Under the pieces are notes generated by a model that ran no database searches, was not told the origin of the DNA, and was given only the letters and a program-made list of their open reading frames with translations. Below are positions 5,516 to 64,000 of a stretch of 64,000 bases of DNA, one piece after another. How positions within the stretch are numbered: position 1 is the first letter of the stretch; each line of letters opens with the position of its first letter. A program made the translations under genes and the position numbers. This DNA is from Lachnospiraceae bacterium (GTDB lineage Bacteria > Bacillota > Clostridia > Lachnospirales > Lachnospiraceae). The stretch lies in contig JAFTJD010000065.1 in the NCBI GenBank assembly GCA_017456585.1, forward strand, positions 626 to 64,625, given 5' to 3'.

Positions 5516-6691
5516 TTAAACCTCTGCCATATACAGACATGGTTTACCTTCTAAGTCAGTTGTAAATATAACATGCTTGCTATCCTTTGTAAAGAACGGA
5601 TGCGGATGAGTGTCCTGTGAATTACCATATATCGCTCTCCACGAGCTACCATGGTAGCAGAGTTTAATCTCTTTTCGTGCTTCTACATCCACGATATAAA
5701 TAAAATCGTTCTTAACCTCGCCCGTACGGTCCTTCTCCTTTGAATGGTCAAGCATATGTATCGGAACATCGTGTCCCTGTGAATCTCCCACCATATATTT
5801 ACCGCTAGGTGCCACATTGAAATGTGCATATGGCGAACAGTTCATAAATACCTCTTCTTTCATGGTACTCATAGGAATCATGCGAATATTTTCTTCCATC
5901 TTACCTGTGGTCTCCTTATACACATAAGCCACACTCTCTCCGTCCGGCATCCATATCTCATGTGTAATAATGAGGTCTGACGGCTGTTCCCTCAAGCAGG
6001 TAAGTCCTGTTCCGTCGATATTAATACACCATAATCTCGCATCTATCAAATCATATGGTCCTTCATGGCAGAAAAGAATCTTATCTCCATATATAGGTCT
6101 TATCTGCGTATGCCCAAGCCAGCATCTTTCTTCATGTATAATACGGCTTGTACCTTTTTCCATATCAATATATACAATTCTGCAAAGTGGTTTCGCAAGA
6201 CAGTTCTCAGCAAATGCATCCCAGTTGCCGCCAACCTTGCGTTTGGCTGTAGTGTCCTTTCTGGTTTCTACGATAGACATATATTTATAATCACTGCTTG
6301 GTCCCAAATCTCCACCCGCAGACCAGCCTTCAGGAGTCTCGTAGAAGCATTCCTCTTCTCCTGTATCAAGGTCCTGCTTCATAAATCGCTCGCCCTGTCT
6401 GTAGATAAGATATCTGTCATCAGCAGTAATCATACCACTATAATCAGCCACACCGGTTCCTTCTGTCATCTGAACGGCATCGCCTGTCTCTATATCCATA
6501 AGATACAGCTGACGTTCTCCGTTAAGTTCTGCACTATACAGAAGCTTCTTGCCATCACTTGTCATCATATTATTGTAAAAGTACATATGATGACTTACAT
6601 GATCCGGCTCGGTAAGTCTTGTAACATTAGTTCCTGTATAGGTATCTTTATATGTATGAAATTGATTCTTTATAATATCTCTTTTTGCCAT
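5516..6691 (-). CDS. ogl: oligogalacturonate lyase (PL22)
   Basis: 391 aa, collinear by recall with enterobacterial Ogl: N-terminal FHTYKD..TG..VTRLT, central WLGH..RP...FCHEGP.DL.DARLW, C-terminal THPHP.FT.D.KH..FT.D.EGKP.LY.A.V. Confidence 0.85.
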   Translation of the reverse strand: MAKRDIIKNQFHTYKDTYTGTNVTRLTEPDHVSHHMYFYNNMMTSDGKKLLYSAELNGERQLYLMDIETGDAVQMTEGTGVADYSGMITADDRYLIYRQGERFMKQDLDTGEEECFYETPEGWSAGGDLGPSSDYKYMSIVETRKDTTAKRKVGGNWDAFAENCLAKPLCRIVYIDMEKGTSRIIHEERCWLGHTQIRPIYGDKILFCHEGPYDLIDARLWCINIDGTGLTCLREQPSDLIITHEIWMPDGESVAYVYKETTGKMEENIRMIPMSTMKEEVFMNCSPYAHFNVAPSGKYMVGDSQGHDVPIHMLDHSKEKDRTGEVKNDFIYIVDVEARKEIKLCYHGSSWRAIYGNSQDTHPHPFFTKDSKHVIFTTDLEGKPCLYMAEV

Positions 6692-22572: not shown

Positions 22573-22732
22573 TTTTCCACCTCTTTCTATTTTTACTTTA
22601 TTCTTTAATTATGAAAGTCGTCTGCTACAACTCCGTTCTCCCGCATCCGCCTCCATTCGCATTCTGCGCTATCGAGTTCATGCTCGTTCAGGCTTAGTTT
22701 GCAAATATCTCGACAATTTTGCCAACAAGCTA

Positions 22733-23932
22733 TCAAATTGTCGAGCTGCTTGCCAACACTTTCATAACATATTGTTTCGCTGTTCTTGCGGAGCGACCGC
22801 TTCCCGCAAGTGCAAAAGCTTCCGCTTCAACTGCAAGCTTTTGCTCATCCATTTCTATATTATACTGGTTTAGAATACCTTTTACAATCTCTATGTATTC
22901 TTTTTTACCCGGTTTAGAAAAAGTAACCGTTAGTCCGAATCTGGCCGAAAGCGATATAAGCTGTTGTATCGTATCGTTTCGATGAATATCGTCCCCTTCT
23001 CTGTCTGAGAAGCTTTCTCTAACCAGATGTCGACGATTACTTGTAGCATATATAACTATATTATCTGCTCTCGCCGAAACGGAACCTTCAAGCGTAGCTT
23101 TGAGCGCTCCGAAACAGTCATCATCTGATGAAAAAGATAAATCATCTATAAACAATATAAACTTAAGTGGATTACGGCTTATGCTGTCAATAATTAGAGG
23201 AATATCTCTAAGTTGCTCTTTAGTTATCTCGATAAGTCTAAGACCTTGATTAGCAAATTCGTTAACTACAGCCTTAACTGTCGAAGACTTACCCGTTCCC
23301 GCATCACCACAAAGAAGTACATTCTGAGCAGGTTTACCCGAAAGCAACGCAAGCGTATTATCAATAACCTCCTGACGCTCTCTCTGATACCCAATAAGGT
23401 CTGAGAGTCTTGTCTCATCAGGATATTTTACAGGTACAACCTTACTATCCTTAATGATAAACATAGAATACTTAGCATAAAGACCATAACCAAAATTGCC
23501 TATTCCAATAATTCGCTTGCGATATTCAGCCTTAAAATCAATTTCTTCGGTTCTCCATTCCGGAAGAAATCCATTGTAATCAATAGTCGCCGCAACTTCC
23601 GAAGATGTGAGTCTTGAGATGCTCTCAAGCACCTCAAGTTCTCTCATCGCACACTCTTCAATAAGTTCATCAACCACCTTGCCCTCAGCATGGCGTATAA
23701 TATATGAATTCTCATCCTGAAGTACAAGTTCAAGCAAATACTTACTAAGATTCTCTGACTTCTTATAAAGCTCATACACAAACTTTGAATAAAGTCTTAT
23801 CTGTACAAGTGAATCATCTTCCTCTGCTGCAAGTAATTCTGAAAGTGCACTTATAACTTTTTCTTTTAAAATTCCTCTGAAAATAACCAGAGAATTGAGC
23901 CCCAGATCAAGCTCTTTTAAACGGGTATTCAT
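22733..23932 (-). CDS. DUF815-type AAA+ ATPase
   Basis: 399 aa with Walker A (LLCGDAGTGKSS) and Walker B (FILFIDDL). Starts 1 nt after the leuB stop. Confidence 0.8.
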   Translation of the reverse strand: MNTRLKELDLGLNSLVIFRGILKEKVISALSELLAAEEDDSLVQIRLYSKFVYELYKKSENLSKYLLELVLQDENSYIIRHAEGKVVDELIEECAMRELEVLESISRLTSSEVAATIDYNGFLPEWRTEEIDFKAEYRKRIIGIGNFGYGLYAKYSMFIIKDSKVVPVKYPDETRLSDLIGYQRERQEVIDNTLALLSGKPAQNVLLCGDAGTGKSSTVKAVVNEFANQGLRLIEITKEQLRDIPLIIDSISRNPLKFILFIDDLSFSSDDDCFGALKATLEGSVSARADNIVIYATSNRRHLVRESFSDREGDDIHRNDTIQQLISLSARFGLTVTFSKPGKKEYIEIVKGILNQYNIEMDEQKLAVEAEAFALAGSGRSARTAKQYVMKVLASSSTI

Positions 23933-33664: not shown

Positions 33665-33946
33665 GGAATAAAAAAAGCCCCCCTTATGCTATTGCATAAA
33701 AGAGACGAAGAAGTTCTACTCCGTGGTACCACTCTTTATTGACATATACATGCCCACTCACGCATCATCAAATAATGTGCCTCTCTGTAACGGGAGAAAA
33801 CCGTTCCAACCTACTTTGCATAAGAAAATGCGGTTCAGCCGACTGCTCCGGGAGGAGTTTACTTACCCTGTTTTACCACCTTACACCGGCCGGTGGCTCT
33901 CTGCGAAAACAAAAATAAGTTTTAGTTCCCTTCATTGCATTTATTG
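33665..33946 (-). promoter_or_regulatory. T-box leader (probable Leu specifier) with terminator
   Basis: On the minus strand: stem-I-like AGAGAG...GGUG; AGUA followed by AACUC (CUC = complement of 33855-33857); T-box sequence AAAGAGUGGUACCACGG (33721-33738); terminator CUCUUUUAUGC-AAUA-GCAUAAGGGGG plus U7 (33670-33706). Confidence 0.8.
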
Positions 33947-57435: not shown

Positions 57436-58209
57436 TTATGGATTAATAACTATTCTAAAACCAATCCCATCTGTGGCGTCTTGCTCACCACAAGCATTTC
57501 TATATCCCGAACGGCAACTATCCGGACTTGCACCCCAGCCACCGCCTCGCGAAATTCTCGCTTCGCCTTTCTTCGGACCTGTCGGGTCGGTAAGATCATC
57601 CGCAAGATATTCTGCACTATAATAATCCAAGCACCATTCCATTACATTGCCATACATGTCATATAAACCATTGGGATTCGCTTCAAAGCTACCTACCGGA
57701 TATGTTTTAGCATCAACATCAGTTTCCCCATAAGTACTATATGCCGTCTCCTCATCCCCAAAGAACCATTTCGTAGTAGTTCCTGCACGACAGGCATATT
57801 CCCATTGTGCCTCAGTAGGTAAACTAACATCATATCCACTCAATTCGGAAAGTTTCTCGCAAAAAGCATTAGCATCCTTCCAGCTAATGGTCTCAACCGG
57901 CAATTCTTTACCTTTAAACGTACTGGGATTATTCCCCATCACTGCTTCCCATTGAGCTTGCGTTATTTCAAAAACTCCCATATAGAAATCTTCCGTAATG
58001 GTAACCTCTCTCACCGGCAGTTCATCTTCATCACCAATGCCCTCATAGCTTCCCATAAGAAAGTTTCCTGCGCTTATCTTATTGAGTACTATCTCACAAC
58101 CTTCAAGTGAGATAACTATATTGTCACCATAATCGACATTAGCCTTCTTGGAACAAGCCATGCAAAGGACTGTTACAATGCAAATCAATATCAAGCCGAT
58201 TCTCTTCAT
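57436..58209 (-). CDS. formylglycine-generating-enzyme (SUMF1/EgtB/PvdO) family lipoprotein
   Basis: Lipobox LCMAC. FGE-fold motifs (EITQAQWEAVMG, NVMEWCLD, RGGGW). Confidence 0.8.
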   Translation of the reverse strand: MKRIGLILICIVTVLCMACSKKANVDYGDNIVISLEGCEIVLNKISAGNFLMGSYEGIGDEDELPVREVTITEDFYMGVFEITQAQWEAVMGNNPSTFKGKELPVETISWKDANAFCEKLSELSGYDVSLPTEAQWEYACRAGTTTKWFFGDEETAYSTYGETDVDAKTYPVGSFEANPNGLYDMYGNVMEWCLDYYSAEYLADDLTDPTGPKKGEARISRGGGWGASPDSCRSGYRNACGEQDATDGIGFRIVINP

Positions 58210-58236
58210 GTCATTCTCCGTTCAGCCAAAATAGTT

Positions 58237-59466
58237 TTAGTTAAAGCATCCCATTCCTGCCAAATCACTGCCACTCTTTAAGTGCATGAAAGTAATGGTA
58301 GGTAATACACCATTAGCTCCTCTTGCTCTTGTCATCTGTGATGCATCCAAGCTCACGAAATCATCTGCTGTACAATTATAAGCACTGTTCCAAGAACAGC
58401 TTCCTACCTTTGTTCCTGTACCAATATTCTTGATAGTACCATTGTATGAAATGTTAAGTCTAAGAACTTCTCTTGTTCCCGGTATATCTGTCGAGTCAGT
58501 AGGGCTAACACGCTCTAACATGTTATAGTTAGATGTCTTATTACCATATGCTGTATTATTGGTCCATGTAGCTGCCTGGCCAGGCTGATGGTTAGCATAG
58601 AAACCATTAGCTCCGTTACAAGCCGCAAGACAATTTACAACTGTATGTACCGGCACTGTGCTAGGTACTGTTCCTGTACCATATCCACCGATTTTAAATC
58701 CGTTGGAATCTCCACCCTTGTTCATGTCGTATGCCCAACATGTATCAAATGTATTAGCTCCCTTAGATGTAATACAATCATAACCATCATCACCACATGC
58801 CCATGCACGACACTGGATAAATGTAACACCTTTACCATGTGCACCAAAACCATCTGTATTGCTGTTAGACACACTGTTAGAAGTATAAAGATTATACGCA
58901 TCACACTTAATTACTTTACCTGTTCCATTATTACAGAAATAGAAACCGTTAGCATTGGAATTATAACAGGTAATCTGATTCATTGTTGCACTTCCTTCAA
59001 TACGGAAGCACTCAGACTGCTTCTGGCTGCCAACAGGAACACCTGTTACCTTAAAGCAAAGGAATGTTACACCTGTTACACCACTCTTAACATGGAAAGC
59101 TGCAACTCTCTTAGAAGTTGTTGTTCCTGAGAAATCGAAAACAGGAACATCCTTAGATGAGTATGCACGATATGTAATGTTACTCTTTGTAAACTGATGT
59201 ACATAATTATAATTACTATCTGATGTCTCTATTGAAAAATTCTTGTAAGTTCCACCCATAATATATACGGTATCTCCTGAAGAAGCTGCTTCCTCAGCCT
59301 TGTTCAATGATGCAAATGGGCTTGAATAAGTTCCTGAATTAGAGTCGCTACCTGAAGGTGACACATACCAGTCAGCGGCATGTACAACCGTTACACCGAT
59401 AGCCATTGAAAATACGAAACCAAACGCAATACTTGCTAAAGTTTTAATAAAATTAAATTTCTTCAT
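58237..59466 (-). CDS. secreted right-handed parallel beta-helix protein (pectate-lyase/PL9-like, DUF1565-type N-terminus)
   Basis: Signal peptide, then WYVSPSGSDSNSGTYSSPF...GDTVYIMGGTY, and repetitive G/N/T-rich beta-helix turns. Confidence 0.65.
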   Translation of the reverse strand: MKKFNFIKTLASIAFGFVFSMAIGVTVVHAADWYVSPSGSDSNSGTYSSPFASLNKAEEAASSGDTVYIMGGTYKNFSIETSDSNYNYVHQFTKSNITYRAYSSKDVPVFDFSGTTTSKRVAAFHVKSGVTGVTFLCFKVTGVPVGSQKQSECFRIEGSATMNQITCYNSNANGFYFCNNGTGKVIKCDAYNLYTSNSVSNSNTDGFGAHGKGVTFIQCRAWACGDDGYDCITSKGANTFDTCWAYDMNKGGDSNGFKIGGYGTGTVPSTVPVHTVVNCLAACNGANGFYANHQPGQAATWTNNTAYGNKTSNYNMLERVSPTDSTDIPGTREVLRLNISYNGTIKNIGTGTKVGSCSWNSAYNCTADDFVSLDASQMTRARGANGVLPTITFMHLKSGSDLAGMGCFN

Positions 59467-59599
59467 TATTGTAAACCCTCTCTTTTTTCATATAAGTGGC
59501 ACAGCTTCAATACATATTCTCAATATAGTTTTTTGCTATCCTCCTTGTCTCGTATTTACCCTCTACTCCCATTTGCTTTGAATTCCAGCCACCTCCCTA

Positions 59600-59628
59600 A
59601 TTATACCTATAAGCCCACACACAGTCAA
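59600..59628 (-). promoter_or_regulatory. sigma-A-type promoter TTGACT-17-TATAAT
   Basis: -35 at 59628-59623, -10 at 59605-59600. Predicts a ~130-nt 5' UTR for the beta-helix gene. Confidence 0.55.
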
Positions 59629-59760
59629 GAAATTTTTGTGCATTTTTACCATTTTTCTTCGTTATTTTATTCTCAATTTGTATATTATTACTAATATGCA
59701 AAATATCCCGAATAAATATTCAACTTGTTAAAAAAGAAACATAATTTCAGCTAAAATTCA

Positions 59761-60000
59761 TTAATATCCATAAGCTGCTTCCCTAAAAAAGCTTGGAACT
59801 TCATAAGGCAACTCTGATGTCGGAAAGTACTTAAAATTCAGATTAGTATAGTTTGGATTTTGGAATAAAATCTGCACATTAATTCCTTCTTCTAATCCGA
59901 TTACATACTCACTATCGATATTATTTTCCTTTCTGTTCATATAGTTTAAATAAACCGGTGGTTGTTCACTATGATTCATTGAATCAATAGCCAATATCAT
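59761..60000 (-). CDS. hypothetical small protein (weak coding call)
   Basis: 79 aa from ATG 60000, 19 nt after the phosphoesterase stop. No RBS seen and no motif. Confidence 0.3.
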   Translation of the reverse strand: MILAIDSMNHSEQPPVYLNYMNRKENNIDSEYVIGLEEGINVQILFQNPNYTNLNFKYFPTSELPYEVPSFFREAAYGY

Positions 60001-60019
60001 CAATGTTTTATTATAATAA

Positions 60020-60712
60020 CTAGTCTACATAATATTCCTGCATCGTATCTAAACAAATACACCCAAGCGGATACCCAAACGAAGCCCCGCAATCAACTGC
60101 AATATGGTTGTTACCTTTCCACACTCTTCCTTCGTATTTCTTATCAATAAGCTCCGTAGGAGTATGCCCGGTTACCAATATTATATTGTCGAAATATATT
60201 TCATCATAATCCGGTTCGCCCAATATAAGCTCTCGTTTTGAACACAGTTCCGGTTCTTCCGGCATACTCTCCTTTTCCGGCACGGTATGTGCAAAAAAAT
60301 ACATTTGTCCGTTTACTTCCAGTTTTTTAAAAAATGGCATAGCTCTTAAATAATCTAATATAATCAACTTCTCTTCTTTATCCAACTTCTGAAAGTTTTC
60401 ATAAGTTGGTAATCCTCCATCGGATATCCAATATTCAAATTGCTTTGCAAATTGCCCATTCGCTGTCGTTGTTTCCTCTTTCATCAATTGACTCAGAATA
60501 AACAAGGCTTTATGATCATGATTTCCCCTTAAAGCAATCACATTCTTTCTTCGAATTAAATCGAATAATATTCGTATTCCATCCGGTCCGCGATCCACAA
60601 CATCACCAAGAATATAAAGCATGTCCGTTTCCTTCAAATCAATTATGGAAAGCATTTTACTGTATTTCTCATAACAGCCATGCAAATCCGACATTACATA
60701 AATCATTGGCAT
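60020..60712 (-). CDS. calcineurin-like metallophosphoesterase (PrpE/ApaH-type)
   Basis: SDLHG, GDVVDRG, RGNHD, GHTP. Confidence 0.85.
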   Translation of the reverse strand: MPMIYVMSDLHGCYEKYSKMLSIIDLKETDMLYILGDVVDRGPDGIRILFDLIRRKNVIALRGNHDHKALFILSQLMKEETTTANGQFAKQFEYWISDGGLPTYENFQKLDKEEKLIILDYLRAMPFFKKLEVNGQMYFFAHTVPEKESMPEEPELCSKRELILGEPDYDEIYFDNIILVTGHTPTELIDKKYEGRVWKGNNHIAVDCGASFGYPLGCICLDTMQEYYVD

Positions 60713-60811
60713 ATCCTCCTTTTCACTAGGTTTTGTTATTATTGTTCATTTATTGATTACACCTATTTATATCATATCTAAGCGCGCATTATTTTGTACA
60801 TCTGCGTTTAA

Positions 60812-60849
60812 GAAAAGGAAAAAAGGGAAAAGGTCCGTAGGACCTTTTC
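60812..60849 (-). terminator. strong intrinsic terminator ending the helicase operon
   Basis: On the minus strand: GAAAAGGUCC-UAC-GGACCUUUUC followed by CCUUUUUUCCUUUU. Lies 19 nt after the stop at 60869. Confidence 0.85.
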
Positions 60850-60868
60850 TATACTCTAAATATTGTTT

Positions 60869-61321
60869 TCATACATATTTCAATGCTTCCACCATATCGG
60901 ACAAATCACCCGTTTTGACATCATACACTAATTTATCATCTTCTCCATAATAATATTCAAACTCATATGCAGGAAAAACTCCATCTCCATGCCATTGATA
61001 GGAATCCGTTACTTTTCCCAACATAAGACGAACCGCAAGTTGTGATGCCCTAAATTTTTCGTTATCTTCATCAGCAGTATACCTGTCTGACATATACTCA
61101 GACATCAGGCATGTAAGTTGCAACACTTGAAGAACATTCACAGTTTCACCCCATTCTTCCATCTTGAGCTGTTCCATGTTATAAACTGAATCAAAAATTT
61201 CAAATGCTCCCTTCATTGCCTCATCAAATAATGCTTCATTAAATTCCTCACCAAATACATACGCGTTTACATTTTCCAAAAGACTACTCCATAATTCTCT
61301 CACATTATGAAAGTTTGCCAT
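60869..61321 (-). CDS. hypothetical acidic, predicted helical protein
   Basis: 150-aa ORF starting 3 nt after the upstream stop. No recognisable motif. Confidence 0.6.
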   Translation of the reverse strand: MANFHNVRELWSSLLENVNAYVFGEEFNEALFDEAMKGAFEIFDSVYNMEQLKMEEWGETVNVLQVLQLTCLMSEYMSDRYTADEDNEKFRASQLAVRLMLGKVTDSYQWHGDGVFPAYEFEYYYGEDDKLVYDVKTGDLSDMVEALKYV

Positions 61322-61324
61322 AGA

Positions 61325-62068
61325 TTAATCCCCCTCTCCAAATTCCATAAATACCTTTTCCTTAAGTGGCTTATGTTCCCGAAACTCCGGGCGGTCTGAA
61401 AAACATATCTTTACTTTAGGTTCCTGATGAGATACATATTCTCTTAATTCATCCTTAAATTCTTTGGTACTCCAACTATGCTCTTCCGACGCACTATCCA
61501 ATACAAGAATATGAGTTGGTTTATAATAGTCAATCTCTATTTTCAACAACTTAAGCATACCATTTTCCATCTGAGTTTTCTTTAACTTTTCACAAGGATT
61601 ACCCGCCTCTTCAGCACATATCACTTTACACAAATTAGAATAACATATATTTTTATACCATTCCGTTTCATCTTCCGCACCAGTTAATCCGAGATATATT
61701 TCCTTCGAAAACCCAAAAAACGGTTTAGAATCTATATAACCATTTTCTTCTTTTCTATGAATCCAACTCAGATGGTCTGTTTCATAATAATATTCATTAA
61801 AACATTTTTCTATTTTCTTTTCATTAATAGAGCATCCCTCTGCTGTATATTCAGTTACTGCAAGGTGAGGTTTTTTTGTTTTACCGCTAGCTCTTCCCAC
61901 TACCATAAACTTTACTTTATTATCATTAAAGTAATTTTCACCATGCCGTGCAAATTCAATCATAAGTGGTTCGCCATTTTTTATTTCTTTTGATTTACCT
62001 TTCGAAATAACTTCCAAAACATTTTTAGCTACTTCCATTACCTCTTTCTTATAACATTCTAACTCCAT
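61325..62068 (-). CDS. hypothetical protein with possible uracil-DNA-glycosylase-superfamily topology
   Basis: 247 aa with an AAGGAG RBS. The order of blocks FMVVGRASGK / YSNLCKV / NPC..L.....L..EI.YYKPTHILVL / KICFSDRPEF resembles UDG family 4/5 motif positions, but the catalytic residues are not canonical. Confidence 0.6.
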   Translation of the reverse strand: MELECYKKEVMEVAKNVLEVISKGKSKEIKNGEPLMIEFARHGENYFNDNKVKFMVVGRASGKTKKPHLAVTEYTAEGCSINEKKIEKCFNEYYYETDHLSWIHRKEENGYIDSKPFFGFSKEIYLGLTGAEDETEWYKNICYSNLCKVICAEEAGNPCEKLKKTQMENGMLKLLKIEIDYYKPTHILVLDSASEEHSWSTKEFKDELREYVSHQEPKVKICFSDRPEFREHKPLKEKVFMEFGEGD

Positions 62069-62114
62069 AGTTGTTCTCCTTTGTTGTTACACTTTTTGAT
62101 ACTTTTCATGTACC

Positions 62115-64000
62115 TCATTGTCGGCTTTCTTTACCAAGTTTATCTTCAAGGGCCTCAAATGCCGCATCTACGGCTTCCTCCCTTTTGGCAAATACTTCTT
62201 TACAAAAAACATTGTCAATTGAATATTTCCAATTATCATAGTTCTTATTATAGTATAAAACAATCAAATGGTCTTTTACTTTTAAATAACTATTATTATT
62301 TTTGGAAGTACGCCATTTACGGTTATGAAAATTTTCTTTGCGCGACTGCTTATTTTTAAAATCCTGTTCACGCCTTTTAGCCCTGTCGATATTCCCTTCC
62401 ATCTTGCCTGCACAGACACAGCCCACATCCAGTGAGCCGTATTCTGCATGGTACATGTGATGAACATATCTGATTATTTGATGACCGCACATCTGACATA
62501 TGCCTACAGGTGCCCCCAAATCCGACACTCCTGTGCAAACCCAACCTGTTTTGGGCACATCATCTCTTTCCCATAAATTGTCAGTACTCACATTCTGCCT
62601 CGGAACCTGTATATCTTGCGGCGAATCGGATTGCCCTCCCGGCTGTTGATTACCATTACCGCCAACCGGTTTAAGCTCCGAAACCTTCTTTTCTTCCACT
62701 TTCTCATAACCCTCAGGAATCTTTTTATCCATATTAGTTGTCTCATGATTTTTTCTATCCATAGCAGTCGTAGGAGCAGGAGCTACAGCGTTAGAAACGG
62801 CGGTATCAGCGACATTCGTAAAGCTATTTTGGTCCACAGCAACCTTCAGAGGAATTTCCCTCTTTCGATTAAAGAAGTCTACCGATATCTCCCTCTCACT
62901 TTGAAGCTTATCGAAACGAATTAAATAGCTGCCCTTATTTTTTCCATATCCCAGTATTGTGCCTTCGCCAAATGCCGGATGAGTCACTTTGTCATTAACC
63001 GCTTTAACGCTCGTATCAGGGGTCTCTTCAAAGAGTTGAGTTGCATAACGATTAGCATTTTCCTGCAATTCTCTTGATATATTCCCTACTCTGATATAAT
63101 TATCTTCACCTATTTCTTTCAAAAATCGTGAAGGATATTTCTCTTTGCCGTTCTGATTATAGCCTTCAGAATCCAGCAAAAATAGTCTTTTCTCCGCTCT
63201 TGTGATAGCCACATAGCATAATCTTCGTTCTTCTTCCAAGCCTAATTTCTTTCGTTCTTCTATCGTCTTTGCTGACGGAAAAATCCCCTCTGAGAAGCCC
63301 AATACAAAAACATACGGAAATTCCAAACCTTTAGAAGAATGTATAGTCATCATTTTTACCATATCACATGACTCATCGCCATCATCCTCTGACTGCAATG
63401 ATATTTGGTTAATAAACTCCTTCAAAGATACCTCTTCACCTAAGTTTCGCTCATACTCTGTAGCGATACGTTTAAACTCAGACAAATTCTCAAAACGTTC
63501 CATATCCCCAAGTTCTCTGATGTATTTCTCATATCCGCTATCACTACATACTTTCTCTACGATTTCTGTCACTTTAAGTTCGTTAATATGATTACGGATA
63601 TTTTCAATAATGTTAACAAACTCACGGGCACCACTATTAGCGAAAGCAGAATCATTAATATGTTCTTTCAGCGTTTGATAATAAGACATATCATTCTTCT
63701 GCAGTTGCGCAAGATGCTGTAGCTTCATTCTTCCAAATCTTCGTCTCGGTGTATTAATTATTCGTTTAAAAGCTATATCATCATCGAATGCAATGAGTCT
63801 AAGATACGCCATAATATCCTGAATTTCCATTCTGTGATAGAACTTAACTCCTCCGAATATTTCATACGGAATACCCACTTCCGTAAGCTTCTTTTCAACA
63901 ATTCTTGATAAAAACCCCGAACGATATAGTATAGCAAAATCCGAAAAATTACATTTCTGTTCATTACGAATTCTGTTAATATTTTCTACTATCTTATCAA
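62115..64000 (-). CDS. UvrD/PcrA-family helicase (5' end outside the window) with a long C-terminal extension
   Basis: The reading frame is open to the window edge (DKIVENINRIRNEQKCNFSDFAILYRSGFLSRIVEKKLTEVGIPYEIFGG...). Motifs V/VI (TIHSSKGLEF, YVAITRAEKRL), a Tudor-like HPAFGEGTILGY segment, a low-complexity linker, then a Cys/His-rich module. Confidence 0.85.
   Translation of the reverse strand, partial: DKIVENINRIRNEQKCNFSDFAILYRSGFLSRIVEKKLTEVGIPYEIFGGVKFYHRMEIQDIMAYLRLIAFDDDIAFKRIINTPRRRFGRMKLQHLAQLQKNDMSYYQTLKEHINDSAFANSGAREFVNIIENIRNHINELKVTEIVEKVCSDSGYEKYIRELGDMERFENLSEFKRIATEYERNLGEEVSLKEFINQISLQSEDDGDESCDMVKMMTIHSSKGLEFPYVFVLGFSEGIFPSAKTIEERKKLGLEEERRLCYVAITRAEKRLFLLDSEGYNQNGKEKYPSRFLKEIGEDNYIRVGNISRELQENANRYATQLFEETPDTSVKAVNDKVTHPAFGEGTILGYGKNKGSYLIRFDKLQSEREISVDFFNRKREIPLKVAVDQNSFTNVADTAVSNAVAPAPTTAMDRKNHETTNMDKKIPEGYEKVEEKKVSELKPVGGNGNQQPGGQSDSPQDIQVPRQNVSTDNLWERDDVPKTGWVCTGVSDLGAPVGICQMCGHQIIRYVHHMYHAEYGSLDVGCVCAGKMEGNIDRAKRREQDFKNKQSRKENFHNRKWRTSKNNNSYLKVKDHLIVLYYNKNYDNWKYSIDNVFCKEVFAKREEAVDAAFEALEDKLGKESRQ

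Follow-up and report, generated by a model that had tools for sequence, protein, structure and literature searches.

A helicase and a uracil-DNA glycosylase-like protein in a three-gene unit that may be a reduced copy of a WYL-controlled island of gut Clostridia

Introduction

What purpose unites a UvrD-family helicase gene and two small genes of no named family in one tight unit? The question is raised by positions 60,812 to 64,000, read on the minus strand, of a 64,000-nucleotide stretch of a Lachnospiraceae bacterium contig (JAFTJD010000065.1), which we call "the window". We compared this unit with related loci gathered from other assemblies and contigs (labelled L001-L032, L084 and so on). 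The explanation we favour, tentatively and with somewhat less than even confidence, is that a mobile DNA-conflict island of gut Clostridia (Oscillospiraceae/Acutalibacteraceae type), under WYL control, is present here as a reduced copy. The predicted constant core that best fits the comparisons is a gene for a regulator with winged helix-turn-helix, WYL and WCX domains (wHTH-WYL-WCX), followed immediately 3' by a gene for a protein of the uracil-DNA glycosylase (UDG) superfamily. The shuffled accessories comprise an FtsH/IetA-like AAA protein, a DnaB_C-type ATPase, a NinI-like phosphoesterase, a nucleotidyltransferase resembling the alpha subunit of DNA polymerase III (PolIII-alpha-like), acidic proteins and, sometimes, a PcrA-like helicase. 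As support we count the operon anatomy, the UDG fold, the motif pattern, the linkage to WYL genes and the neighbouring conflict and mobile genetic element genes, together with low guanine-plus-cytosine (GC) content, assembly breaks, a patchy family, a nonsense allele, and the precedents set by Brig and WYL proteins. Two things are new here: an Arg-substituted UDG clade coupled to WYL regulators, and a PcrA paralog with a zinc tail derived from phages.

A single transcription unit

Reading of the minus strand confirmed every structural detail that a first-pass annotation had claimed for the unit, coordinates included. The PcrA/UvrD-type helicase gene (62115-64000, minus strand) is still open at the window end; its C-terminal 627 codons are visible, its N-terminus lies beyond the window, and its stop codon, TGA, is at 62117-62115. 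A spacer of 46 nucleotides (nt; 62069-62114) carries an AAGGAG ribosome-binding site at 62081-62076, 7 nt 5' of the ATG (62068) that opens an open reading frame (ORF) of 247 amino acids (aa; 61325-62068, minus strand). The TAA stop of this ORF is followed by TCT and then by the ATG of a 150-aa ORF (60869-61321, minus strand), a gap of 3 nt. The unit is closed by an intrinsic terminator (60849-60827) with a 10-bp stem, a 3-nt loop and a T-run (GAAAAGGTCC-TAC-GGACCTTTTC), which begins 19 nt past the last stop and is one of just 2 terminator-like sites within 4.6 kb. Between 40 and 64 kb every plausible gene-like ORF of at least 120 aa is on the minus strand, and GC skew is strongly negative throughout. 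This layout shows the three genes to form one transcription unit. The absence of ligA downstream was also correctly noted; the next gene encodes a calcineurin-like phosphoesterase (60712-60020).

Gene neighbourhoods and WYL coupling

The first-pass annotation proposed the helicase, the 247-aa protein and the 150-aa protein as a candidate three-gene module, and asked whether it is conserved. Every obtainable context was gathered and compared by tblastn and BLASTP, and the trio proved not to be co-conserved: besides the window only L001 has all three genes, and each member occurs without the others. In L001 a WYL gene lies between the helicase and UDG-like genes, and a 157-aa ORF lies between the UDG-like gene and the 150-aa homolog. 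The helicase family accompanies a UDG-like gene only in the window, in L001 and in L014, where the two are on opposite strands and 3 kb apart, and it occurs alone in other contexts (L016-L018).

The constant partner of the UDG-like gene is a regulator. A wHTH-WYL-WCX gene lies directly 5' and on the same strand in every cellular related locus for which upstream sequence is available (among them L001, L002-5, L007, L014, L015, L020, L021 and L025-27, with a remnant in L006). The pairing holds at 26-30% identity, the WYL and UDG-like genes overlap by 17 nt in L028-30 and by 8 nt in L031-32, and the two sequences have diverged in parallel. The WYL protein matches PF13280 and PF25583, and the PADLOC WYL model at 2e-32. 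The window itself holds no WYL homolog anywhere in its 64 kb (tblastn). The sole exception seen to the pairing among related loci is L084, from IMG/VR, where a distant UDG-like relative (5526-6293) lies between ORFs of 517 and 421 aa with no WYL gene nearby. Repressors of the wHTH-WYL-WCX type that sense single-stranded DNA (ssDNA) are known to switch defence operons (PMC11662680, PMC9122601). Among the papers that a literature search listed, none joined a WYL regulator (WYL, BrxR, CapW) to a DNA-repair glycosylase in a relevant context; the overlaps listed were off-topic papers and one review of restriction-modification.

Another frequent neighbour of the WYL and UDG-like pair is a soluble protein of about 410-425 aa with AAA and Peptidase_M41 domains, FtsH-like and matching the PADLOC IetA model at 7.7e-19. 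Its gene lies 5' of the pair in the regions L028:5659-8780 and L031:5584-10226, and 3' of it in the regions L007:1847-3097 and L014:2043-3275.

The UDG-superfamily protein

The 247-aa protein had been called "UDG-fold-like", a description that structure prediction and profile searches uphold. The AlphaFold2 (AF2) model, made with close homologs as input, has a predicted local distance difference test score (pLDDT) of 91 and a predicted template-modelling score of 0.90. It places strands at residues 54-58, 141-144, 186-190 and 220-224, each preceding a motif, in a central four-stranded parallel sheet. Foldseek against the PDB returned Mycobacterium smegmatis UdgX as all of its top 13 matches (E 1.6e-4 to 4.5e-3, probability about 1.0), and against BFVD it returned phage family-4 UDGs and UDG domains fused to phage PolA. 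Exhaustive profile searching assembled 870 representative clusters (50% identity) at E ≤ 1e-3, of which 225 score at or below 1e-10; almost all clade members are 230-290 aa long. Among sampled distant relatives, 20 of 64 match the Pfam UDG family (PF03167) at E < 0.01, the best at 5.3e-6, and 4 of 64 match TIGR00758 (UDG_fam4); no other family is matched consistently. Four distant relatives score 17-19 bits to PF03167, below its gathering cutoff of 24.3 bits. From model and profiles together, the 247-aa protein is a predicted UDG-superfamily member of a distinct, unannotated clade with a family-4/UdgX-like core. Longer relatives carry no informative domain fusions, and PDB sequence searches with profiles A1, A2, A3 and A4 and with two proteins from related loci, L22_194 and L23_229 (see below), gave chance matches only.

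Motifs were counted over 170 relatives aligned to the family profile and compared with published UdgX/family-4 definitions (PMC10776899); equivalence between motifs is inferred from spacing and secondary structure rather than from residue-level structural alignment. The signature reads VVGR59A-x-G, F117, N145-x-x-K148, G-N157-P158, H186-I-L and R226-P-E. Two elements of the family-4/UdgX core are kept. The stacking aromatic (F65 in UdgX) is F117 in 151 of 170 relatives, and the N-x-x-K of motif 3, which is peculiar to family 4 and UdgX (PMC10776899), has N145 in 164 and K148 in 142 of 170. The spacing from Phe to Asn is 28 residues, against 26 in UdgX, and that from Asn to motif 2 ([R/H]P) is 81, against 87. 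The catalytic motifs differ. Motif 1, which begins G-E-[GQ]-P in UdgX and family 4, is V-V-G-R59-A-x-G, with Arg in 152 of 158 aligned relatives; motif 2, which is H-P in the reference families, with a catalytic His (H178 in UdgX; PMC10776899), is R226-P227-E228, with Arg in 100 of 104. About 45 residues are inserted between motif 1 and the stacking Phe.

The UdgX cross-linking His, which sits in an extended R-loop about 18 residues past the motif-3 Asn, was not found: residues 146-166 (LCKVICAEEAGNPCEKLKKTQ) are free of His. A subfamily-specific W-I-H104 occurs elsewhere in the protein. In family-4 UDGa, four conserved Cys ligate a 4Fe-4S cluster. The 170 relatives hold no conserved four-Cys set of this kind; in the close family, invariance is limited to C89 and C142, C142 is present in just 29 of 170 across the clade, and no Cys follows K148 clade-wide.

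A proposed mechanism

UDG-superfamily proteins with remodelled pockets act as antiviral effectors against phages with modified bases, as described for Brig1 (PMC11078745), and the same kind of defence glycosylase has been reported in Brig2 (bioRxiv 10.1101/2025.10.29.685425) and Brig3 (bioRxiv 10.64898/2026.02.25.707755). The first-pass remark that DNA glycosylases can serve phage defence is thus sound, Brig1-3 being proven effectors. The step from fold to function in the 247-aa protein is made by analogy with them. From phage or plasmid DNA entering the cell, the UDG-like protein would flip out a non-canonical base, probably a modified pyrimidine; it would then excise or clamp that base in the manner of Brig1-3, leaving abasic sites that block replication. 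At canonical loci, ssDNA would be the signal on which the WYL repressor frees the operon. In the window, the regulator would have been lost and the UDG-like gene would be driven together with the helicase, whose role may be to unwind damaged DNA or to strip it; the acidic 150-aa protein would be auxiliary, perhaps inhibiting the glycosylase-like protein or serving it as an adaptor.

Several observations weigh against this proposal. The comparison covers only about a dozen independent contexts, and most neighbour genes match no PADLOC model. The Foldseek matches to UdgX have only modest TM-scores, 0.33-0.42. Even at E ≤ 1 the window protein matches nothing in Pfam, and since it is its distant relatives that match PF03167, the link to the superfamily is transitive. 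Neither hhalign, which gave junk in global mode, nor phmmer detected similarity between the 247-aa clade and the Brig1 sequence taken from the published supplement. Both the motif-1 Glu and the motif-2 His are replaced by Arg, and H178A abolishes UdgX activity (PMC10776899); with catalytic residues so changed, the protein may bind DNA rather than cut it. WYL factors govern DNA-damage regulons as well (PMC10693628). A replication module could equally account for the DnaB_C, PolIII-alpha-like and clamp-loader-like AAA genes of related loci. Finally, the window copy lacks the WYL, DnaB_C and AAA genes and so may be a remnant.

A broader proposal, which we think rather unlikely to hold as a whole, is that WYL and Arg-substituted UDG-like genes, often with an IetA/FtsH-like AAA protein and a DnaB_C-type ATPase, make up a widespread, undescribed inducible system. 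Such a system would recognise a foreign non-canonical base by a chemistry unlike that of all known UDG families; ssDNA or abasic intermediates would feed back on the WYL protein, the acidic partners would be immunity proteins or DNA-mimic regulators, and the PcrA-like helicase with its phage-derived zinc module would be an optional processing arm. If the glycosylase-like protein is active, the UDGs would gain a further family, whose active site is unusual and whose substrates form a new class. Glycosylase antiviral defence would likewise gain a regulated, multi-gene form in human-gut Clostridia, a group with few tested defence systems. Through its tight coupling to WYL, the operon offers a direct experimental handle on its expression. 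If the genes are merely a replication module of a mobile element, the locus is an ordinary one.

The helicase and its C-terminal zinc module

The full-length helicase, 959-976 aa, was taken from identical contigs of other assemblies (L009), and is 75-79% identical to the L001 helicase. The 627 residues visible in the window match UvrD_C (2.8e-53) and also align with PcrA, UvrD and Rep models over their C-terminal half; the full L009 protein aligns with positions 2-695 of 725 in the PcrA model TIGR01073. Its Walker A (GSGKT), DEFQD, GDPDQNIY, TIHSSKGLE and YVAITR motifs (the last three being motifs III, V and VI) are all present, and by these motifs it is an intact motor of helicase superfamily 1A. 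The score to TIGR01073 is 608 bits against a cutoff of 911, which makes it a PcrA-like paralog and not the PcrA equivalog. Identity with the housekeeping PcrA was ruled out by that score, by the added domains, by the lack of ligA downstream, and by the copies in other genomes (L017, L018), which are split into two or three ORFs.

The first-pass annotation had drawn an analogy with Gabija GajB, which fails because GajA, an OLD-family ATPase-nuclease, is absent and the GajB matches are restricted to generic UvrD_C sequence. GajA was found neither beside the window's helicase, 5' of which the contigs end, nor in the neighbouring positions of related loci, including L001, where the genes 5' of the helicase encode a rhomboid protein, a HIRAN protein, a 294-aa ORF and an AAA+ protein. 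Among the best 25 of 29 PADLOC matches to the helicase, all are to generic UvrD_C (23 GajB models, RTasHel and C3a187), and the GajB hidden Markov model matches (5.8e-31) are confined to that region. Gabija, Nhi and Hhe were rejected on these grounds. The same PADLOC run on the locus gave no model for the 247-aa or 150-aa protein, and both remain, as had been reported, outside named families (no Pfam, NCBIfam, PADLOC or PHROGs match).

The "novel C-terminus" that had been noted in the helicase is real, and the alignment identifies it as a predicted zinc module, of a kind carried by phages, attached to a PcrA paralog. Between the PcrA core and this module of about 160 residues (62118-62603, minus strand) runs a linker of low complexity, some 90 aa long (about 62604-62873, minus strand). 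In the module an invariant C2H2-like motif, C-x2-C-x8-H-x3-H ("IRYVHxMxH"), is followed by G-C-x-C-A and an alpha/beta tail (alignment A4). Neither Pfam nor the PDB offers a relative of the module; the top PDB match to profile A4 is a C2H2 finger at chance level. Its homologs (n = 62) are mostly stand-alone ORFs of 90-270 aa, some of them directly 3' of UvrD helicases (L017, L018). They occur in 48 IMG/VR viral contigs (L033-L080) and in four GenBank phages (PV036426.1, PV036431.1, PV036425.1 and PV764937.1), where the module is a common, unannotated stand-alone protein of about 150 aa. The phages include those of Oscillospiraceae and Acutalibacteraceae and an Agrobacterium phage. In the Acutalibacteraceae phage NatCom_11578 the module adjoins a DNA polymerase and a helicase, and in one of the Oscillospiraceae and Acutalibacteraceae phages it comes after genes for a DNA polymerase, a nucleoside 2-deoxyribosyltransferase and a DNA helicase. 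The viral loci have nothing else in common with the window, and of two phage neighbour proteins that were checked neither is UvrD-like. A module common in gut phages has thus been captured by a cellular or island PcrA paralog, and may be the sign of an interaction, interesting more widely, that recruits or inhibits helicases.

Genomic setting

Related loci lie among mobile-element and defence-type genes, which supports the first-pass interpretation on this point. Their neighbours include tyrosine integrases, a serine recombinase, NikA, PcfJ, HEPN proteins, type I restriction-modification genes, SNF2/P4-cII-like helicases, Fic, PemK and the IetA-like ATPase. The related metagenome-assembled genomes are Acutalibacteraceae and Oscillospiraceae. 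In the window, a T-box leader (33698-33944, minus strand; 112 bits) and a Clostridiales-1 small RNA (22609-22767, minus strand; 56 bits) each exceed their Rfam gathering scores, in support of an origin in the Clostridia.

In the window, the gene past the terminator (60020-60712, minus strand) encodes a 230-aa calcineurin-like, NinI-like metallophosphoesterase (Metallophos 1.7e-14, phrog_246 5e-36). It is 53-69% identical to the phosphoesterases encoded 3' of the DnaB_C gene in L001, L022 and L025, and is by this likeness a predicted syntenic member of the same island. An 80-aa ORF (59761-60003, minus strand), seen in same-strain contigs only, lies at the low-GC end of the island; GC content is 0.342 over 59761-62114 and 0.388 over the whole window. 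Immediately 3' of the island, 57436-59466 (minus strand) holds ordinary chromosomal genes for a Pel9A-like secreted beta-helix protein (409 aa) and a lipoprotein with an FGE-sulfatase domain (257 aa).

On the other side, at least three independent assemblies (L009, L011, L012) end about 170-280 bp 5' of the helicase ORF, just past window position 64000, and the L009 contig (L009:1-280) ends within the first codons of a divergent ORF (MSKNPKG...). Such ends point to a repeat or strain-variable junction there, and suggest a repeated or strain-variable element 5' of the helicase. Direct and inverted repeats within 59400-64000 are chance-like.

The families themselves are patchy and rare, with 20 close homolog clusters for the 247-aa protein and 10 for the 150-aa protein; metagenome and genome scans with the family alignment A1 found 2 loci each.

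Alternative explanations

The alternative that survives best, though we consider it unlikely, is that the locus derives from the replication and repair module of an integrative mobile element, a satellite or a prophage remnant. A PcrA-like helicase would unwind the element for rolling-circle or theta replication, the DnaB_C, PolIII-alpha-like and AAA+ proteins would form its replisome, and the WYL protein would be a damage-inducible switch for induction of the element. The UDG-like protein would scan for lesions or uracil, or would be a non-catalytic replisome accessory comparable to the poxvirus D4 UDG and to PolA-fused UDGs, a role with which the BFVD matches to PolA-fused domains and the replaced catalytic Glu and His agree. 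The recurrent partners of the pair are a DnaB_C/AAA_25 ATPase, the NinI-like phosphoesterase, a PolIII-alpha-like protein of 314-449 aa, AAA+ proteins and small ORFs, and L025/26, L022 and L001 have a backbone in the order WYL-...-DnaB_C-Metallophos-PolIII-alpha-like-AAA667. The DnaB_C protein scores 249 bits to TIGR00665, and neighbours match phrog_19 and phrog_168 (clamp loader). The place of the zinc module beside a polymerase and a helicase in phage NatCom_11578 and the nearby integrase, resolvase and NikA also favour a replication module.

Other evidence speaks against it. The WYL and UDG-like genes also form a compact chromosomal cassette of 3-5 genes (L028, L031), with no integrase or relaxase within 8 kb on either side, or, on the 3' side of L031, within the approximately 3 kb before the contig end. 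The 247-aa protein is absent from PLSDB and INPHARED, three distant relatives are absent from PLSDB, IMG/VR holds only one distant relative of the clade, and viral scans for the close 247-aa and 150-aa families found none. Gene content between WYL and DnaB_C is so variable that the interval looks like a cargo slot. Finally, conservation is very strong at the pocket residues, suggesting that the protein deals with a specific ligand or substrate instead of serving as a scaffold.

The PolIII-alpha-like proteins deserve separate mention. They are encoded at L002:10958-12307, L025:5758-6702 and L021:11701-12216, match only the first ~85 positions of PF07733 (palm domain NTPase), and recur 3' of the WYL and UDG-like pair, often with a conserved 274-aa ORF.

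It is improbable, in our judgement, that these genes are instead host DNA-damage-response paralogs, in which a WYL protein, an activator of the DriD/PafBC/SiwR type, would turn on a specialised glycosylase, joined here by a UvrD-like helicase, to mend a particular class of lesion in the cell's own chromosome. WYL activators do respond to ssDNA by turning on neighbouring repair-type genes (PMC10693628 and work on DriD), PcrA/UvrD are the nearest relatives of the helicase, and L031 adjoins genes for AP endonuclease 2 and a pyrimidine-nucleoside phosphorylase. A host repair function is hard to reconcile with a patchy, strain-variable distribution, low GC content, mobile-element and toxin genes as neighbours, helicases split or decayed in L017 and L018, a nonsense allele of the 247-aa gene in one strain, and a window that has no WYL gene.

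The properties of the 150-aa protein raise the further idea of a toxin/immunity-like pair, in which the UDG-like protein would be a self-damaging, DNA-targeting enzyme and the 150-aa protein a DNA-mimic inhibitor, as Ugi, p56 and SAUGI are of UNG. The protein is acidic (pI 4.2; 30 Asp plus Glu against 11 Lys plus Arg), has a helical N-terminus, and starts 3 nt past the UDG-like stop. It is 51% identical to a 153-aa ORF of L001, and its N-terminus weakly resembles small ORFs beside other WYL and UDG-like pairs (L1_157, L28_147). Its family also occurs without the 247-aa family, behind a 194-aa ORF in L022 and with a 229-aa and 138-aa pair in L023. One of these, L22_194, can be aligned in register, though weakly, with members of the UDG-like clade at and near the N-L-Y-K motif, at a marginal E of 0.026. 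Most UDG-like loci, in contrast, have no 150-aa homolog, and its AF2 model is poor (pLDDT 61), and Foldseek, which placed the 247-aa protein in the UDG fold, returned nothing for it; sequence searches gave no match either. We regard a toxin/immunity pair as very doubtful.

These ORFs, whose products look unrelated, are worth describing. The 194-aa ORF (L022:1093-1677) lies right behind the WYL gene and directly 5' of the 150-aa family member, and the 229-aa ORF (L023:249-938) precedes the family member with the 138-aa ORF between them. Three motifs reminiscent of those of UDGs occur in both proteins (L[KR]EPN, N[LI][YH]P and F-x-H-P-[SC]), and the two may represent an alternative glycosylase fold in the same slot. 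Compared with Brig1 by hhalign, they gave no signal.

In L010, the copy of the 247-aa gene (L010:2714-3457, equivalent to window 61325-62068) carries a G-to-T change that turns codon 107 from GAA to TAA and yields ORFs of 106 and 99 aa; it is the sole difference from the window across ~5 kb, and comes from one metagenome sample. That change and the absence of key backbone genes could mean that the window copy, having lost its WYL, DnaB_C and AAA genes, is an eroding remnant with no current function, but this seems scarcely likely with all three ORFs intact in the window and in four other assemblies, the helicase motifs intact, and the ribosome-binding sites and terminator preserved.

Comparison with known systems

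The reduced-island explanation, which we continue to prefer, can be set against known systems. The 247-aa protein resembles family-4 UDGa and UdgX in its alpha/beta fold, for which UdgX is the only significant PDB match, and in its stacking Phe and N-x-x-K. It differs in having G-R-A for G-E-[GQ]-P and R-P-E for H-P-S, in the insertion of about 45 residues, in lacking the Fe-S Cys set and the R-loop His, and in being tied to a WYL regulator rather than found in housekeeping contexts.

The helicase resembles PcrA/UvrD in having a full PcrA-like core that reaches position 695 of the 725 in the profile and holds every catalytic motif, whereas its score is below the cutoff, ligA does not follow it 3', and it carries an extra 250 aa of linker and zinc module. 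With Gabija the window has in common a UvrD_C region that GajB models match, and it differs, as do related loci, in having no GajA in neighbouring positions.

The operons governed by BrxR and CapW also invite comparison. Their likeness to the related cellular loci with upstream sequence lies in a WYL+WCX gene immediately 5' and on the same strand. However, the window has no WYL gene, the cargo is not that of a described system, and a WYL protein can also be the activator of a damage regulon.

The comparison with the Brig proteins covers the sequence of Brig1 alone, whose motifs G-L-N-P-G and Y-P-W-H-S we read from it; Brig2 and Brig3 were compared by description. The accounts of Brig1, Brig2 and Brig3, as far as they were available to us, mention no obligatory WYL partner, whereas one accompanies the UDG-like gene in related cellular loci. 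There are also likenesses: Brig1-3 and the 247-aa protein are single-domain members of the UDG superfamily of about 250 aa, annotated as hypothetical and distributed patchily on islands or mobile elements, and the remodelled pockets of Brig1-3 are aimed at the modified bases of phages.

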